Position numbers and translations under genes: made by a program
Shown here: piece by piece, positions 33,946 through 57,048 of the stretch
How the letters are laid out: every line of letters begins with the position of its first letter
Numbering within the stretch: the stretch's first letter is position 1
Notes under the pieces: generated by a model
The model's database searches: none
Seen by the model: the letters and a program-made list of their open reading frames with translations, nothing else
Told to the model about the DNA's origin: nothing
NCBI GenBank assembly: GCA_040080135.1
Contig: JBEBIZ010000006.1
Coordinates: forward strand, 16,829 to 80,828
Reading direction: 5' to 3'
DNA length: 64,000 nt
DNA from: Thiobacillaceae bacterium
GTDB taxonomy: Bacteria > Pseudomonadota > Gammaproteobacteria > Burkholderiales > Thiobacillaceae

Positions 33946-35334
33946 ATGAACTTTACTCAATTCCTGCTGATTCTGAACGCGCGCAAGTGGGTTATTCTTG
34001 GCGTGCTGCTGTTAATTGTCGCCGTTACTACGGCGGTGAGCCTATGGCTCCCGAAGGAATACACTGCTGCCACTGACCTGATAATTGATTCCAAGAGCAA
34101 GGATACCTTGACCGGTCAGATGCTGTCCTCACAGATGTTTCCTGGGTACATGGCGACCCAGGTCGACGTTATCAAGAGCGCCAAAGTCGCGCAAAAAGTG
34201 GTGTATGAACTGAAGTTGGTGGATAGTCCCGGTGTCCGCGAGCAATTCATGCAAGCGACTAAAGGCAAAGGCACCATCGAGCAGTGGCTGAGTAGTTCGC
34301 TGCTGCAAAGACTTAACGTCGAGCCTTCGCGCGAGTCCAGTGTGATTACTATTTCATTCGATGGATCAGACCCGCAATTTAGCGCCACAATAGCTAATGC
34401 TTTTGCCAAGGCATATATTGAAACTAATCTTGACCTGCGCGTGGAACCTGCCAAGCAAAATGCTACTTGGTTCGACCAGCAGATTGTCCAGTTGCGTGAG
34501 CGAGTAGACCAGGCCCAGCAGAAACTCACTGCCTATCAGCGTGAAAAGAGTATTGTCGAATCCGAAGAGCGGCTGGATGTGGAAACCCGGCGCATGGGGG
34601 ACATCGCGGCCCAGGCGGTCGCGGCACAATCCGCGTTGTTTGATGCCAGCTCACGCACGCGTGAGAGTAGTAGCCTACCCGAGGTGACCAACAACCCAGT
34701 GGTGCAAGGCCTGAAAGCACAAGTGGCACAAGGCGAGGGCAAGCTGGCCGAACTGGCCGGGCGCGTCGGTGCCAACCACCCCGAATTTTTGCGCCTACAG
34801 GCCGAGGTCAATACCTACAAGGCCAAACTCGCCACCGCACTTAGTACGGCTACGCGCGGTATAGGTGCCACCGCCGGCGCGGCGCGCCAGCGTTACAGCG
34901 AACTGAGCGGCGCATTTGATAAGCAAAAAGTCAAAGTGCTGGGGCTAAAGCAGCAGCGCGAAGAAGCCACCCTGCTGGCACGCGATCTGGAAAACGCCCA
35001 GCGCATTTACGATTCCGCCCTGCAGCGCTATGGTCAGAGCCGTATGGAAGCACAGTCCACGCAAACCGACATCTCCGTGCTGAATCTGGCGGTTGCCCCC
35101 ACCGCTCCGTCCAAGCCGCGAGTATTCCTGAGGGTATTTCTCTCGGTATTCGTGGGCGCTTTGCTGGGCGTGAGTGCAGGGTTACTGGTTGAAATGTTGG
35201 ATCGCCGAGTGCGTTCCGGGCAGGACATTGCAGCTGGATTGGGAATACCGGTGTTGGCCGAAGTGACTAAAAAGGGTCGCCGACTGAGGGCGCTGCGCCG
35301 TCTGCTTAGCCGCAACCGCCCCGCCATGGCTTGA
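33946..35334 (+). CDS. epsF: Chain-length determinant (polysaccharide co-polymerase)
   Basis: Two TM segments flanking a coiled-coil, P..PSKP, and C-terminal LDRRVRS..D....G.PVL. Confidence 0.88.
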   Translation: MNFTQFLLILNARKWVILGVLLLIVAVTTAVSLWLPKEYTAATDLIIDSKSKDTLTGQMLSSQMFPGYMATQVDVIKSAKVAQKVVYELKLVDSPGVREQFMQATKGKGTIEQWLSSSLLQRLNVEPSRESSVITISFDGSDPQFSATIANAFAKAYIETNLDLRVEPAKQNATWFDQQIVQLRERVDQAQQKLTAYQREKSIVESEERLDVETRRMGDIAAQAVAAQSALFDASSRTRESSSLPEVTNNPVVQGLKAQVAQGEGKLAELAGRVGANHPEFLRLQAEVNTYKAKLATALSTATRGIGATAGAARQRYSELSGAFDKQKVKVLGLKQQREEATLLARDLENAQRIYDSALQRYGQSRMEAQSTQTDISVLNLAVAPTAPSKPRVFLRVFLSVFVGALLGVSAGLLVEMLDRRVRSGQDIAAGLGIPVLAEVTKKGRRLRALRRLLSRNRPAMA

Positions 35335-47864: not shown

Positions 47865-48034
47865 GCCTAGTGTCGTGAAACAGAAATATCGAAACATGAA
47901 ACGGCGTCTTTTTCCGCATGGCGGCGTTGCTCGTCGTTGCCATAGAGCCAGCTATGTCGCCTCCTCACGCCTTGCCCTGCGAAAAAATCCATCCGTTTCA
48001 TTTTGTTGCACTATTTCTGTTTCACGACACTAGC

Positions 48035-49189
48035 ATGCGAATACTGCACATCATATCCAGCGTAAACCCCCACGGGGGGGGGCCCATGGAAGGCGTGCGC
48101 CAGCGCGGCCTCAAGCTTGTGGAGATGGGCCACAGCGTGGAAGTGGTGTCGATGGACGATGCCCAGGCGCAGTATGTGGCGGAGTATGCGTTGCCAGTGC
48201 ATGCTTTGGGGCCATCAAAAGGCGCATACCAACACAACCCGCATCTGGTGCCATGGCTGCAGGCCAACGCCCGCTCGTTTGACGTCATCGTGATCAACGG
48301 GCTGTGGCAGTACCACAGCTATGGCGCCTGGCGTGCATTGCAGCGCATGGGAGTTCCGTATTTTGTATTCACCCACGGCATGATGGACCCCTGGTTCAAG
48401 CGCACCTACCCGCTTAAGCACCTGAAAAAATGGCTGTACTGGCCCTGGGCCGAATACCGCGTCTTGCGCGATGCCCAGGCCGTGTTGTTTACCAGTGAAG
48501 ACGAGCGCCTGCTGGCGCGCCAATCGTTTTGGCTCTACAGCGCCCGGGAGGCCGTGGTGAGCTACGGCACCAAGACCCCGCCCAGCGACGCTGACGCATT
48601 GCGGGAAAGGTTTTACACCGCCTACCCGCACCTGCGGGGCAAGCGGGTGCTGCTGTTTTTAAGCCGCATTCAGGAAAAAAAGGGCTGCGACTTGCTGATA
48701 GCCGCTTTTGCCAAAGTGGCCGGACAAGACCCCAGGCTGCACCTGCTGATGGCCGGGCCTGACCAGACCGGATGGGTGGCTAAACTGAAGGCGCAAGCGC
48801 AGGCCCTGGGCGTGGCCGACCGCATCACCTGGCCCGGCATGCTGCAAGACGACATGAAATGGGGTGCCTTTTACGTGAGCGAAGCCTTTGTGCTGCCATC
48901 CCACCAGGAGAACTTTGGGATTGTGGTGGCCGAGGCGCTGGGCTGCGGGCTGCCCGTGTTGATATCCGACAAAGTGAATATCTGGCGCGAGATTGAGGCG
49001 GACGGAGCGGGGATAGTGAACACCGATACGGTGGAAGGCACGGTAAAAACCTTGCAACGCTGGCTGGCTCTGGACGCGTCGGCGCGCCAAATAATGGCGC
49101 AGCAAGCCAGATTGACCTTTGCGCAGCGTTTTACTGTTGAGGCGATGGCGCAGAGTCTGCTTGAAATAATCAGGAAACATACGCCATGA
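48035..49189 (+). CDS. GT4 family glycosyltransferase containing an in-frame G9 tract
   Basis: MRILHII, THGMMDPW, LSRIQEKKG and PSHQENFG.VVAEAL. Confidence 0.88.
   Translation: MRILHIISSVNPHGGGPMEGVRQRGLKLVEMGHSVEVVSMDDAQAQYVAEYALPVHALGPSKGAYQHNPHLVPWLQANARSFDVIVINGLWQYHSYGAWRALQRMGVPYFVFTHGMMDPWFKRTYPLKHLKKWLYWPWAEYRVLRDAQAVLFTSEDERLLARQSFWLYSAREAVVSYGTKTPPSDADALRERFYTAYPHLRGKRVLLFLSRIQEKKGCDLLIAAFAKVAGQDPRLHLLMAGPDQTGWVAKLKAQAQALGVADRITWPGMLQDDMKWGAFYVSEAFVLPSHQENFGIVVAEALGCGLPVLISDKVNIWREIEADGAGIVNTDTVEGTVKTLQRWLALDASARQIMAQQARLTFAQRFTVEAMAQSLLEIIRKHTP
48074..48082 (+). repeat. G9 homopolymer (in frame)
   Basis: CAC GGG GGG GGG CCC at codons 14-16 of the GT4 gene. Confidence 0.9.
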
Positions 49190-51314: not shown

Positions 51315-52562
51315 ATGAAAGTCCTGCTTTACAGTGCCAATTTCGCGCCCGAGCCTACCGGCATTGGCAAATATTCCGGCGAGATGGCCGCCTGGTTTGC
51401 GGCGCAAGGGCACCAGGTGCGTGTGGTTGCAGCGCCCCCCTACTACCCAGCCTGGCAATTGGGCGTCGGCTATGCGTGGCCGCCCTACCGGCGCGAGCAG
51501 TGGCAAGGGGTGGACGTGTGGCGTGCTCCCTTGTGGGTGCCGCGCAATCCGGGTGGCCTGTTGCGCGTCGTGCACCTGCTAACGTTTGCCTTGTCTTCCT
51601 TGCCAGTGATGCTGATCCAGGTATTTTGGCGTCCGAATGTGGTGATGACGGTGGCGCCCGCCTTTGTATGTGCCCCGGTGGGATGGCTTACGGCAAGACT
51701 TTGCGGTGCCAGGGCGTGGTTGCACATTCAGGATTTTGAGGTTGACGTGGCTTTCCAGCTGGGGCTGCTTAAAGGCAAGGCGATGCAGCGACTGGTGTTG
51801 GCTTCAGAGCGGTGGCTGATGAGGCGCTTTGATGTCGTTTCAACCATCTCCCGCAAGATGATGGAGCGCCTGGCCACCAAGGGTGTTACGCCAGAAAAGA
51901 TCTGTTTCTTCCCCAATTGGGTGGACATTGACCAGGTACGCCCACTGGCCAAACCAAGCAGCTACCGGGCGGAGCTGGGGATTGCGACCGACGCGGTGGT
52001 GATGCTGTTCTCTGGCTCGCTGGGGAACAAACAGGGGTTGATGGTGATCCCTGATGCAGCCCGGCGCCTGTTGCAAGTGCCCGGTGTTGTTTTTGTGGTG
52101 TGCGGTGATGGCGTCATGAAGCCCGAGCTGGAAGAGGCGGCCAGAGAACTGCCTAACTTGAAGTTATTGTCACTGCAACCCTTTACAAGGCTAAGCGAGT
52201 TGCTGGGTCTGGCAGACGTCCATTTACTGACCCAGAGCGCTGATGCGGAGGACCTGGTGTTGCCCTCCAAGCTGACGGGCATGCTGGCCAGCGGACGACC
52301 GGTGATTGCAACTTGCAACGCGGGCACCGAGATCGCGGTTGTCGTTCAGCACTGTGGGCTGGTAGTGGCGCCAGGAGATGGCGCAGCGCTGGCATTGGCT
52401 ATCGTACAGATGGTCAATGACGTTGCCACGCGCCTTCGGCTTGGTACACAGGCGCGCGCTTATGCGGAAACGAATCTTGCACGCGATTTAGTGCTGGGTC
52501 GGCTGGCGAAGAAGATGGCATCCAATTCATTGAAAGAAACAGATGAAACAGCAACAAACTAA
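51315..52562 (+). CDS. wcaI: WcaI-like GT4 glycosyltransferase
   Basis: NFAPEPTGIGKYSGEMA, PPYYP.W, HIQDFE, FPNWVD, SG..G.KQG and PSKLTGMLASG. Confidence 0.85.
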   Translation: MKVLLYSANFAPEPTGIGKYSGEMAAWFAAQGHQVRVVAAPPYYPAWQLGVGYAWPPYRREQWQGVDVWRAPLWVPRNPGGLLRVVHLLTFALSSLPVMLIQVFWRPNVVMTVAPAFVCAPVGWLTARLCGARAWLHIQDFEVDVAFQLGLLKGKAMQRLVLASERWLMRRFDVVSTISRKMMERLATKGVTPEKICFFPNWVDIDQVRPLAKPSSYRAELGIATDAVVMLFSGSLGNKQGLMVIPDAARRLLQVPGVVFVVCGDGVMKPELEEAARELPNLKLLSLQPFTRLSELLGLADVHLLTQSADAEDLVLPSKLTGMLASGRPVIATCNAGTEIAVVVQHCGLVVAPGDGAALALAIVQMVNDVATRLRLGTQARAYAETNLARDLVLGRLAKKMASNSLKETDETATN

Positions 52563-53691
52563 ATACCCTGATGCCGGTGAAATCGTGATCTTTCAACCAG
52601 AATTCGTTGAATTCGGCGGGGAAGAACGCGTCATATTGTCGCTATCGAGAGCGTTACATGCTCAAGGCAAACCACATTCTATTTTGTGTTACTGGGACCA
52701 GATTAACCTGGCCTCGTACGCTTCGTGGCCATTGAAGGTGAATCAATTAAATCCACCACGAAATCCCCTTAAAAAGGTGCTGTCTTTGCGACACTGCCTT
52801 CAGTACCTTCATAAGGTGGGCAGTCCGGTTCCGGTGTTGTTCAATATCCAGTCAGCCTATCACGCCGGTTTGGGCGCCACGGCGCCATATCATTTGCGTA
52901 TTCCGGATACATATAGCTTGCTCGGTTTTAAGCCAGACGGCGAGTGTGCAAGTACAACCTCTTTTGCAGAAATGCTTAAAACATGGCTCTCTACCGCTGT
53001 ACGCCATGTTGCTACTCGGCGCGGTATCAACAAGGCCAATCATTTTGTTACCAATACCGCTGCCCTGCGCGATGAAATGGGGCGGCTATATGGTCGCAAC
53101 GCCGAAGTCATTTATCTGGGCGGGTTTGGGGAACCGCGGGCCGATCTGCCAAAGCGGGCAAATCGGCCGATTGAATTGTTTACGGTTTCACGACTTCAGT
53201 CCAGCAAACGCATTGACTGGATATTGAATGCATTGGCGGAGGTTAATCAGAATGCTGGCCAATATCCGGAGTGGCGTTTGCATATTGCGGGTTCAGGTCC
53301 TGATCGGGAAGCACTACAAAATTTGAGCAACTCGCTGGGGCTTGGTGATGCGGTGATCTTTCATGGCTTTGTTAGCGATGAGCAATTGGTAGATTTGTAC
53401 GAAAAATCTCACGTGTTTCTAATGCCAGCCAAACAAGGCTACGGCCTGCCTGCCATCGAAGCGCTATATCAAAAGCTGGGCTTGGTGGTGAGCGCAGAAT
53501 CAGGCGTAATCGAACTGCTGGAAAACACTAACTGGGTCACCATAGCAAGGGACGGCAAACAAGGATTTGCAACCGCCATGAAGGAAATGTTGCACAGAGT
53601 GGGGCAACCGGAATTTTTTGATCAACCCTTGCCTGCGCTGCCGACAGAAGAAGTTTGGGCCAAGAAAATCATCGAATATTTCAGATGGTAA
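52543..53691 (+). CDS. GT4 family glycosyltransferase
   Basis: FGGEER, VSRL...KRID and QGYGLP.IEA. Confidence 0.78.
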   Translation: MKQQQTKYPDAGEIVIFQPEFVEFGGEERVILSLSRALHAQGKPHSILCYWDQINLASYASWPLKVNQLNPPRNPLKKVLSLRHCLQYLHKVGSPVPVLFNIQSAYHAGLGATAPYHLRIPDTYSLLGFKPDGECASTTSFAEMLKTWLSTAVRHVATRRGINKANHFVTNTAALRDEMGRLYGRNAEVIYLGGFGEPRADLPKRANRPIELFTVSRLQSSKRIDWILNALAEVNQNAGQYPEWRLHIAGSGPDREALQNLSNSLGLGDAVIFHGFVSDEQLVDLYEKSHVFLMPAKQGYGLPAIEALYQKLGLVVSAESGVIELLENTNWVTIARDGKQGFATAMKEMLHRVGQPEFFDQPLPALPTEEVWAKKIIEYFRW

Positions 53692-53701
53692 TGGAGAATA
53701 G

Positions 53702-54792
53702 ATGATGCAGAACAAGAAGCCTGAAGTAGCGATGAAAGTCCGGTTTAGTTCTTTGGACGCGATTAGGGGATTAGCGGCGATAGCCGTTATGTTTCTGCAT
53801 TATGCCGGGAGAAGTGGACTAGATTGGATCCCGCGTGCGTGGATGGCTGTGGATGTGTTTTTTATCATGTCAGGATTTGTGCTTACGCATAGCTATGTCC
53901 AGAAAATAGCGGGGGGTCGCCTAAATTTTCTGGGCTTTGTCAAAATTCGCCTGGTTAGGTTGATGCCGCTTTACCTGTTGGGTTTGATGCTTGGGTACGT
54001 AAGTATGACTTATACATGTGGATTGCCTGATGCAACCTGTGCGCCAAACGTCATGCCTGCATTAGGTATGGGAATGTTAGTACAGCCCTATTTTACAGAG
54101 ATTTTTTGGCCATTTGGGGTTGGTACACTGAAAACCCCATTTCCTTTAAATGGACCAGCTTGGTCACTTTATTTTGAGTTATTCGTTAATCTGGTATTTT
54201 TTTACTGGGTTGTAAGCACAAAATATAGGCATGTCTGGCTGGTAATAGGGTTGGCATTGCTTGGGTACGTGGCAGCCTATCACTTTAATGGCTCGGTCAA
54301 TGGCGGTTGGACTAATAGTAATTTTTACGTTGGTTTTCCGCGGGTGATCTATCACTTTTTTATAGGGGTGTTGATTTATACCCAGTATCAAAAGTATGGG
54401 TTCAACTCGAGAATAATTGCTCTCAGCTCAATTGCTTTGCTACTGGGAACTTACGCGATTAACTCAAGTTTAGTCAGCATGTTTTCCTTATTTGTATTAG
54501 CGCCATTTGTGGTATTGGCTAACGCCAAGATTACTTTCAATGACTATGCGGAGCGGTTATGCACTTGGCTGGGCGATATTTCCTACCCCTTATATATCGT
54601 GCATTGGCCTATATTCCAGTTGTTGTATTTGTTCGGACATCTGGAGGGTTTACCCCCCCCATCAGAGTGGCTGCTATGGGGTTAATTGCCGTGTTACTGG
54701 CTTGGCCGTTGGCATTAGCTGATAAAGCAGTGCGGAAAAGGTTCTCTCGAAAGTCTGGAGCATTAGCAAAGGTTGCGTTGGAAAAGCCATGA
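53702..54792 (+). pseudogene. Acyltransferase-3 (OafA-like) O-acyltransferase, frameshifted at a C8 tract
   Basis: SLDAIRGLAA, VD.FF..SGFV, W.L..E...Y and G..SY.LY..H motifs. Frame 1 stops at 54685. A last TM helix and basic tail (PPIRVAAMGLIAVLLAWPLALADKAVRKRF) continue in another frame to 54792. Confidence 0.75.
54653..54660 (+). repeat. C8 homopolymer at the frameshift
   Basis: TTA CCCCCCCC ATC. C9 or C6 would join the two frames. Confidence 0.9.
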
Positions 54793-54804
54793 ACAACATG
54801 AACA

Positions 54805-57048
54805 ATGAAAGCGAATAATTTCTCAATCAGATTGGTCGTGGCGAGGACGCTTTTTTGTATTCAAGTCATTGGGCTTGCCTTGTGTTCGCCCTATTCACTC
54901 GCCGATGTTTTACCTCCTGTTATTTTTAATGCGCCCCTGAGCGCCCGCCCCGGCGATATTGTCGGCTTGCAGGGTGAAAACTTTGGTGATGCGCCCGTGG
55001 TCACGCTCATGGGAAATGGCGGAGACAGCACCAGTCTGAACAAACTGGAAGTGGTGAATTCCTTTGGTACCGGCTGGGTGTCTTTCAAAATTCCCGCAAC
55101 GGCCACCGGTGCCTTGACAGTACAAGTCAGTAACGGCGCGGCGACGAGCGCCCCCATCGTGCTCAATGGTGCCCGCGCCTACCATCTGGATGCGCTGCAA
55201 ATTGTCCCGCGCGGACCCTTCCGACTGTTTGGGCGAAACCTGCTGCTGCCGGGCTTCACACCCGTAGTGACGGTGGATGGTTTGCCCGCTGTGGTGGATA
55301 CCCGCGCCAGTGATGAACACATGCTGATGGTTACCGCACCACGCGGCGTGCGGGCGGGCGGCAAGGCTGCCATTTCCGTAGATAATGGCAACGGAACGGG
55401 GCCGGCATTGCTGGACAGAGAGATTGAAGTGGCAGCCGGTCGAGGCGACCCCTTTGCTTTGGGCGTGGGTTGGGGCGCCGGGTTTTCCGCCATTGCTGCC
55501 AAAGTGGTGCTGGCTGTCAGCGATGCCAGGCTGGCCAGCAAGGTGGTGTGCAACGGGCTGGTTGACGACACCCCCGCCATTCAGGCGGCCATTGACCTGG
55601 TGGCTGTCGGCGGCGGCGTGCTGCAGTTGCCCCCAGGCACTTGCCGCCTGGCGGGCAGCCTGAAGCTCAAGTCCCGAGTGGTGCTGCAAGGGGCGGGCAA
55701 GAGCCGCACAGTGATCAGGTACGAAGCTCACTACCCACTTTGGGGGCACGGTCTTGATTTGGCCGGGGTGCGTAACTTGACGCTGATTAATACGCGTGGC
55801 CGGATTGAGAGCCCATTGTTGCAGAACAGCTCTCGCGTTTTTTTTCAGAACCTGAAGTTTATGCTTGGCGGCGGCATTCACATGTTCTTGACGAACAATA
55901 ACAATTTTGTCATCTCGAATACCGACTTCATTCAACCCAAAAACCCCGATGACTATGGACCTTACACGTTGGGCGGATCTGGTGGACTGGTTTTTTTCGG
56001 TAACACCACAACCTTCGCCAACGGATCACCGACTTTTTCCAGGGTGCATGATGCTTACATAGCACACAACCGTTTTACGCGTGACGCAAGAGACAACCAA
56101 AATTCGACGGGTGTGATTCATAGCTTGGCCATGGACTTTGCACATCGTATTGCAATCACAAATAACACCTTTGACGTACTCGGCGGCCCCATAGTGAATA
56201 AGGTTCGCAACGATGGTGAGACCCTGCTCACCGAAGGTGGCGGTGCACGACGTACAGAGAACCTGGGCACTGTCGCTAGCGCTACCGCGATGACGCTTTC
56301 TGACCCGGGTAACACGATTAACGTAACATCTTTTGAAGGGGGTGCGCTTCCAGAGAACTATGGCGTAGCTGTTGTCGGTGGCAAAGGCGCCGGCCAATCG
56401 CGCAGAGTCACCGACTATTCGCAAGGCACTTTGACGGTGGACAAGCCGTGGGATGTGGTGCCTGACACAAGCAGCCGGTATGCCACATTTGTTTGGGGGC
56501 TGGAAAAATCGCTCATCAAGGGCAATACGCTTATGCAAAACCCTCGCGGAATATGGCTCTATCAAACCGCCATTCGCGATGTCGATATTGTCGGGAACGT
56601 GATTCATGAAGGCGGAGGCATATACCTGCGTTCAGCACAGAATATCGAAGATCGACTATTTGTTCCCATTTATGGCGTGCGTATTGCGAACAACACAATC
56701 GAAAATGTCACCAGGGAATGGACGTCATATATCAACGTATCATTTGTACGAATGGACGCGAGTGATTTTGGGATTGGAACCATAGGTATTGAAGTAAGAA
56801 ACAACGAGATAAAGGCAAACACCCCTAACCTGGTTCTATCCAGTGAGGAGTCTGGCGGGGTGGAAGGTTATCTCAATCTCATGCGGTTTGAGGGTCAAAC
56901 CCAAGGGCAATCAAAAAACCAAACCCGACTGTTAGGTACGATTTTTCAGAACAACCAATGTATTGGATGTGACATCGGCGTGTTCGTGCGTGACGGTGCG
57001 AAAGGCACTGTACAGGATGGCAATGCAGTGATTGCTGCGCCACGCTGA
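54805..57048 (+). CDS. Secreted IPT/TIG plus right-handed beta-helix (pectate lyase 3-like) protein
   Basis: Signal peptide, Ig-like N-terminal repeats, DDTPAIQAAID...G..L.LP.G motif and Asn-rich parallel beta-helix repeats. Confidence 0.7.
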   Translation: MKANNFSIRLVVARTLFCIQVIGLALCSPYSLADVLPPVIFNAPLSARPGDIVGLQGENFGDAPVVTLMGNGGDSTSLNKLEVVNSFGTGWVSFKIPATATGALTVQVSNGAATSAPIVLNGARAYHLDALQIVPRGPFRLFGRNLLLPGFTPVVTVDGLPAVVDTRASDEHMLMVTAPRGVRAGGKAAISVDNGNGTGPALLDREIEVAAGRGDPFALGVGWGAGFSAIAAKVVLAVSDARLASKVVCNGLVDDTPAIQAAIDLVAVGGGVLQLPPGTCRLAGSLKLKSRVVLQGAGKSRTVIRYEAHYPLWGHGLDLAGVRNLTLINTRGRIESPLLQNSSRVFFQNLKFMLGGGIHMFLTNNNNFVISNTDFIQPKNPDDYGPYTLGGSGGLVFFGNTTTFANGSPTFSRVHDAYIAHNRFTRDARDNQNSTGVIHSLAMDFAHRIAITNNTFDVLGGPIVNKVRNDGETLLTEGGGARRTENLGTVASATAMTLSDPGNTINVTSFEGGALPENYGVAVVGGKGAGQSRRVTDYSQGTLTVDKPWDVVPDTSSRYATFVWGLEKSLIKGNTLMQNPRGIWLYQTAIRDVDIVGNVIHEGGGIYLRSAQNIEDRLFVPIYGVRIANNTIENVTREWTSYINVSFVRMDASDFGIGTIGIEVRNNEIKANTPNLVLSSEESGGVEGYLNLMRFEGQTQGQSKNQTRLLGTIFQNNQCIGCDIGVFVRDGAKGTVQDGNAVIAAPR
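56146..56231 (+). repeat. 86 bp direct repeat, copy 1 (inside the beta-helix gene)
   Basis: 84/86 identical to 58120-58205. Confidence 0.95.

Follow-up and report, generated by a model that had tools for sequence, protein, structure and literature searches.

Why does an acyltransferase gene in a polysaccharide locus end early, at a run of eight cytosines, when a frame encoding the rest of the protein lies open behind the run? We considered a sequencing error, recoding during expression, a slow slippage polymorphism and a reversible switch in exopolysaccharide (EPS) chemistry. The window, that is, the whole stretch of 64,000 nucleotides that we analyzed, contains the gene, its neighbors and the tract, whose coordinates are collected in the table.

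The acyltransferase gene and its locus

The truncated ORF (P0001) scored 75.8 bits against the Pfam profile PF01757 and covered profile positions 2-311 of 326, while the protein read through the tract scored 81.8 bits and covered positions 2-325. Both are above the curated threshold of 31 bits and belong to the AT3 family; the profile is completed only by the read-through. Homologs are named peptidoglycan/LPS O-acetylase OafA/YrhL in their source records, and a whole-genome search for AT3 genes returned one, the window's own.

The surrounding co-oriented genes encode a GDP-mannose dehydratase, epimerases, several GT4 and GT2 glycosyltransferases, an AsnB-like amidotransferase, a hexapeptide acetyltransferase, methyltransferases, FkbM, an EpsI/DUF3485 exosortase-associated protein, the secreted beta-helix protein and a PEP-CTERM-tagged protease. 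Judged by this gene content, the locus is a PEP-CTERM/exosortase EPS cluster, and it is only this context that suggests an exopolysaccharide as the AT3 acceptor. An EPS O-acyltransferase, as the earlier note had named it, thus agrees with both the profile match and the locus, with the acyl group left general rather than specified as acetyl. Elsewhere in the same EPS locus, a G9 run (48074-48082) lies inside a GT4 glycosyltransferase gene (47918-49189), where it encodes in frame the Gly-Gly-Gly of an N-terminal HGGGP motif. The genome has just one other G/C run of 9 nt, and this G9 is a second potential slippage site of the locus.

Judged by pyruvate kinase, the named relatives closest to this genome (2.71 Mb in 57 contigs, 57.2% GC) are Thiobacillus sp. 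MAGs, at 92-93% identity. The AT3 gene has 44% GC and a GC3 of 48%, compared with 57% and 67% for the genome. Our search for AT3 orthologs found none in 24 same-genus genomes and none in 221 same-family genomes; syntenic GT4-AT3-beta-helix loci, at 64-82% amino acid identity, were found on metagenomic contigs of 42-51% GC. Because the gene is GC-poor, has no ortholog in the family and has its syntenic counterparts on these GC-poorer contigs, it is an accessory gene, probably acquired laterally within a GT4-AT3-beta-helix module.

Table. Features of the AT3 locus and of the tract (window coordinates)
Feature	Position	Strand	Basis and remarks
GT4 glycosyltransferase, upstream syntenic neighbor	52543..53691	+	Pfam; 80-81% amino acid identity to the neighbor in L009, L010 and L014
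AT3 (Acyl_transf_3, OafA/YrhL-like) O-acyltransferase ORF P0001, truncated C8 allele, 327 aa	53702..54685	+	ORF translation, Pfam PF01757
C8 homopolymer (Pro-Pro-Pro codons), slippage site	54653..54660	+	Sequence; in-frame length 9 nt
Orphaned 3′ end in the other frame, encoding IRVAAMGLIAVLLAWPLALADKAVRKRFSRKSGALAKVALEKP (TMH10 and basic cytoplasmic tail)	54661..54792	+	Translation; TGA at 54790-54792
Premature TAA, reached in the shifted frame	54683..54685	+	Sequence; 8 codons past the tract
Secreted beta-helix protein (pectate-lyase/NosD-like), downstream	54805..57048	+	Pfam; begins 12 nt past the ON-frame stop

What is lost beyond the tract

The tract lies 88% along the AT3 gene, in the context GGT TTA CCCCCCCC ATC AGA, with the C8 exactly at 54653-54660. 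With C9 or C6, the frame stays open from the tract through the TGA; one added C gives a 363-aa protein, with a gap of 12 nt before the ATG of the beta-helix gene. The repeat therefore sits inside the ORF and sets its reading frame, as in contingency genes: 9 nt give the full protein, and 8 or 10 nt truncate it. Sequence and ORF translation agree here with what had been noticed at the outset, namely that the C8 run truncates the protein at 54685 and that a C9 or C6 frame would regain a last transmembrane helix and a basic tail, ending 12 nt before the next gene.

The lost tail is conserved. A search with the read-through protein returned 543 homologs, and all of the full-length orthologs compared (12 of 12, at 61-78% identity) follow the +1C frame and share the pattern GLxPxxRV..MGLIAI..AW.L.I.DK..R. 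None of them ends at the C8-type stop; had they done so, this would have spoken against the proposed truncation. In a 68-sequence alignment, D341 and R345, both in the lost tail, are invariant, and the conserved AT3 motifs are likewise invariant in the 68 homologs: S294 and Y298 (SYPLY), together with H33, R22, R83 and R86. The last four probably correspond to the published catalytic residues, among the His and Arg conserved in TMH1 and the arginines around TMH3 of AT3 proteins. The tail spans 42 codons with the same stop position in seven of seven orthologous loci compared. This shared length and stop, the extension of the AT3 profile and the two invariant residues argue that the open tail frame is not a product of chance.

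The AT3 core fold comprises ten transmembrane helices, with a conserved SxxxY motif in TMH9 (PMC9833829). For the intact allele P0122, whose C terminus is identical to the window's read-through in the tail, the AlphaFold model (pLDDT 91, pTM 0.90) has a helix pattern consistent with this core: it ends with helix 281-311, which bears the SxxxY residues S294 and Y298, and a final helix 319-351 with pLDDT above 90. After residue 318 the C8 product of the window diverges, and it is without helix 319-351, so it does not complete the ten-helix core. In the published OafB model, TMH9, TMH10 and the N terminus bound a cytoplasmic entrance for acyl-CoA. A PDB sequence search and a Foldseek search with the AT3 protein gave no significant match, and the helix roles given here are accordingly those of the AlphaFold model and the published models. 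On this structural and conservation evidence, the loss of TMH10 and of the invariant D341 and R345 most likely leaves the C8 allele without activity. A C8 allele of this kind would pass in annotation as a short but "intact" acyltransferase despite missing an essential helix.

Tract states in natural relatives

Sequences of the orthologous site were gathered by exact-sequence look-ups and contig retrieval. Two Logan contigs, L012 and L013, from the runs SRR29156676 and SRR29156677, carry the same C8, out of frame by −1, with 0 mismatches to the window over 1.2 kb. P0122 (363 aa, same 90% cluster), found on contig L016, which was seen in two samples and comes from run SRR23617256, has C9 and is in frame; L016 differs from the window by 10 SNPs in 1228 bp (99.2% nucleotide identity). 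In the lineage of P0004, at 83% amino acid identity and represented by contigs L009-L011 from three samples, the site reads TTA T CCCCCCCCC ATT, that is, 10 nt (T+C9) where 9 are needed, and the +1 shift leads into a third frame. In codon-by-codon comparison, four more distant orthologs are in frame and without a run: L014 (ACA CCG GCT ACA), L017 (AGT CCC CCA GTA), L018 (ACT CCG CCA ACA) and L020 (AGT CCC ACA GTA). Variation of the tract in nature, which the first reading had left to be checked, is borne out, as natural relatives depart from the in-frame C9 both downward (C8) and upward (a 10-nt equivalent), with C8 and C9 separated at 99.2% identity and T+C9 in the 83% lineage. By this comparison, the C run arose in one clade. 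Three of its lineages were sampled, and slippage has shortened the run in one of them and lengthened it in another.

The T+C9 OFF allele is carried by at least two strains, since a single SNP, as well as a diverging sequence downstream, sets L009 apart from L010 and L011. Within each OFF lineage the consensus state was constant across samples (C8 in 3 of 3, T+C9 in 3 of 3), and no reversal event was seen. An exact-pattern scan of a metagenome contig collection for tract variants gave 0 matches, the collection evidently lacking samples of close relatives; an alignment-based scan of the same collection recovered only distant relatives (at most 39% identity) and no further tract lineages.

The synteny of the module extends to the beta-helix gene, which L009, L014 and L020 share at 68-72% amino acid identity. 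We also observed several features just downstream of the tract. Both L012 and L013 end at the same base, 54812, 8 nt into the beta-helix gene, while the contig of the C9 strain reaches 54851; the shared end hints at strain-level sequence branching just downstream of AT3. In the 83% relative, a second, AT-rich AT3 gene lies directly downstream (L009:2239-3356, and the 3′ end of L010). It is also split, into 273 aa and 70 aa, at a T6 run (3053-3058 in L009), where T7 would restore a continuation containing SxxxY. L010, from another sample, departs from L009 exactly at this split, a sign that strains may have recombined or exchanged alleles there.

To place the breaks in time, we compared substitution rates in the tail and the body of the gene. 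Between the two OFF lineages, dN/dS was 0.21 in the tail and 0.07 in the body, with a dS of ∼1.0. Tail values for ON pairs with an estimable dS were 0.20-0.37, with the exception of the close pair L017-L020 at 0.60. The tail comparison revealed no secondary lesions in either OFF allele. Both OFF lineages have thus kept an intact tail frame on which purifying selection acts. By these estimates, both frameshifts are young compared with the split between the lineages, or else the ON state has been repeatedly selected.

Error, rescue, slow slippage or phase switch

Homopolymers are prone to errors, and the earlier note had held it equally possible that the organism is truly C9 with an intact gene; the matching Logan contigs L012 and L013 might come from the same libraries or reads as the genome assembly, in which case a systematic miscall could be common to all. 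However, a second assembler gave an identical C8 from two runs, and an independent lineage with the opposite (+1) state in three samples suits biology better than a directional platform error. Moreover, the assembly has 26 other G/C runs (8-14 nt), and those checked, all but one on contig C19, cause no homology-supported frame break; that other long runs break no gene identified by homology argues against an artifact. A sequencing or assembly artifact, no longer on an equal footing, is now unlikely. We give a similarly slight chance to a C8 allele that still yields functional enzyme through events at expression. The homopolymeric heptamer C CCC CCC permits perfect tRNA re-pairing in the −1 frame for −1 ribosomal slippage, and slippage by RNA polymerase could add a C. 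At ATGGGGTTAA (54676-54685), a tail-frame ATG at 54676, which codes for Met324 in the intact protein, overlaps the TAA that ends the truncated frame, with a spacing of 7 nt. Termination-reinitiation there might produce TMH10 as a peptide of its own (39 aa), able to join up with helices 1-9, but such a product is purely speculative. Against these routes, the frameshift is not conserved, with the nearest strain in frame and orthologs without the run; in the other OFF lineage the shift would have to go the other way, and an equivalent restart is missing; we identified neither a stimulatory structure downstream nor a strong Shine-Dalgarno sequence; and RNA-polymerase slippage is best documented on A/T runs. 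Programmed frameshifting or transcriptional-slippage recoding was rejected as the main reading because the out-of-frame arrangement is not conserved across orthologs, which are in frame and mostly without the run, the nearest strain being C9.

The remaining alternative is a true contingency locus, in which selection would preserve the poly-C tract for rapid, reversible slipped-strand switching, so that each population is a mixture of acylated and non-acylated cells, with a benefit in bet-hedging against phages or grazers or in tuning floc or biofilm properties. The 8-10 nt of C lie within the length range that phase-varies in other bacteria, including mismatch repair-proficient Bordetella (PMC1891110), and AT3 O-acetyltransferases are recurrently repeat-switched, as in Haemophilus influenzae oafA (PMC9558356) and pneumococcal wciZ in serotypes 15B/15C (PMC5028725). 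Three length states across three lineages, a change of state between strains merely 0.8% apart, and the intact, selected tail frame without secondary lesions in both OFF alleles also fit such a switch. On the other side, the genome has intact MutS and MutL, the state is constant within a lineage across samples, and evolved switches seldom have their tract so close to the 3′ end. We found 27 G/C runs of at least 8 nt in the 2.71 Mb genome, 20 of them of length 8, where ∼123 of length 8 were expected from composition; most lie in frame in housekeeping or assorted genes, or are non-coding. Genome-wide, G/C runs are thus depleted and not concentrated in surface genes, and among the other 26, of which all but the C19 run were checked, none breaks a gene that homology identifies. 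Pro-Pro-Pro was encoded as C9 in 3 of 144 cases against ∼3.7 expected from codon use, a rate that is not below prediction and, being about that of chance, lends no support to a selected tract. Altogether, a dedicated contingency switch seems to us rather unlikely.

Some long runs elsewhere in the genome are recorded here for their own sake. On contig C19, a 429-aa AAA-type ATPase ORF, which also has a G8 at 34170, reaches its stop 5 codons past a C8 run (35081-35088). C9 at 35081 would fuse this ORF with the downstream ORF into 661 aa, but the stop is natural-looking and the arrangement is probably one of ordinary adjacent genes. Five runs of 10-14 nt (C14 at C55:4273-4286, C12 at C34:37981-37992, G12 at C53:21612-21623, G11 at C22:148227-148237 and C10 at C57:84753-84762) are far longer than one would expect from the decay of the run-length counts. 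Most are apparently intergenic or at ORF ends: a histidine-kinase-like ORF has its stop 7 codons past the G11, and the C10 is just upstream of a small ORF. They could be variable tracts of promoter or spacer type.

We therefore favor, with moderate confidence, a true hot spot of slippage that yields ON and OFF alleles, reversibly in principle and probably at a low rate. In this model, three proline codons in the lineage of a Thiobacillus-like betaproteobacterium would have become a C9 run, from which replication slippage would have removed one C to give C8. The shifted frame would then end 8 codons on, and its product would be without transmembrane helix 10, Asp341 and Arg345. The enzyme would be inactive and the polymer would be made without its acyl decoration, because the inactivated AT3 is the genome's only one. 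Further slippage could in principle interconvert acylation-ON and acylation-OFF alleles, at a rate that is probably low given intact mismatch repair. That activity is lost, that the polysaccharide is the substrate, that the change can be reversed and that it brings any selective benefit are inferences; the in-frame, −1 and +1 lengths of relatives indicate that ON and OFF alleles coexist in nature. The tract looks more like an allelic polymorphism than rapid phase variation; one state per lineage and intact mismatch repair agree no less well with a slow polymorphism arising by mutation than with classical phase variation. Of the reversible switch proposed at the outset, then, the slippage site and its natural ON and OFF lengths stand, whereas the single state per lineage, intact mismatch repair and the absence of a contingency-locus pattern do not favor the switching itself.

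Known switches and the meaning of the alleles

O-acylation alters the viscosity, charge and recognition of exopolysaccharides and is a common route to changed phage or immune recognition of surface glycans. Campylobacter and Neisseria carry poly-G/C contingency genes. In Bordetella, homopolymeric tracts differ from strain to strain and also inside a single culture (PMC1891110). The window gene resembles the tracts of these three genera in that G/C runs of ∼8-15 nt in surface-related genes are polymorphic between close strains, and it shares with Bordetella a betaproteobacterial host with mismatch repair. Those genomes, however, have many tracts concentrated in surface genes, with within-culture variation measured, whereas in the window's genome G/C runs are depleted overall and one tract-broken gene is confirmed.

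Closer in function is H. influenzae oafA, an AT3 lipooligosaccharide O-acetyltransferase gene that is phase-variable by an intragenic tetranucleotide repeat and is frameshifted in strain Rd (PMC9558356). Both genes are PF01757 members in which a repeat within the ORF sets the frame and strains are intact or frameshifted, and in both the outcome would be the presence or absence of acyl decoration on a surface glycan, as we infer for the window gene. oafA differs in having a 5′ tetranucleotide array and demonstrated high-frequency switching in a host-adapted pathogen; the window gene has a 3′ mononucleotide C run, encodes an AT3-only protein with a putative EPS target, and belongs to a free-living, mismatch repair-proficient, chemolithotroph-like bacterium. 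In Streptococcus pneumoniae, the length of a TA repeat in the capsule O-acetyltransferase gene wciZ divides serotypes 15B and 15C (PMC5028725). As with the window gene, an O-acetyltransferase-type gene in a polysaccharide locus is frameshifted by repeat length and ON and OFF alleles are natural, with mixed populations known for wciZ. That repeat, in contrast, is a dinucleotide in mid-gene in a Gram-positive capsule locus, with documented reversible switching and serological consequences. Natural inactivation of pneumococcal wcjE and wciG underlies serotypes 11E, 9A and 35D (PMC9558356). These, too, are stand-alone AT3 genes of polysaccharide loci that are repeatedly lost in nature, giving non-acylated polymer variants, but their lesions are mostly irreversible and heterogeneous, whereas the window gene has one recurrent slippage site.

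The fullest version of the idea would be a three-state 3′ poly-C contingency switch for EPS acylation, on a laterally acquired cassette, in an environmental, mismatch repair-proficient, sulfur-oxidizing betaproteobacterium. We hold this to be doubtful. If it were true, pressure from phages or grazers would lead populations to switch the chemistry of their slime, and classical phase variation would extend from host-adapted pathogens to environmental chemolithotrophs. The mechanism itself is well known from pathogens, and what is added here is three natural tract states and the setting of an environmental, sulfur-oxidizer-like bacterium. ON and OFF alleles of the sole AT3 gene at one slippage site may serve as a marker for EPS-chemistry variants in natural or engineered communities.
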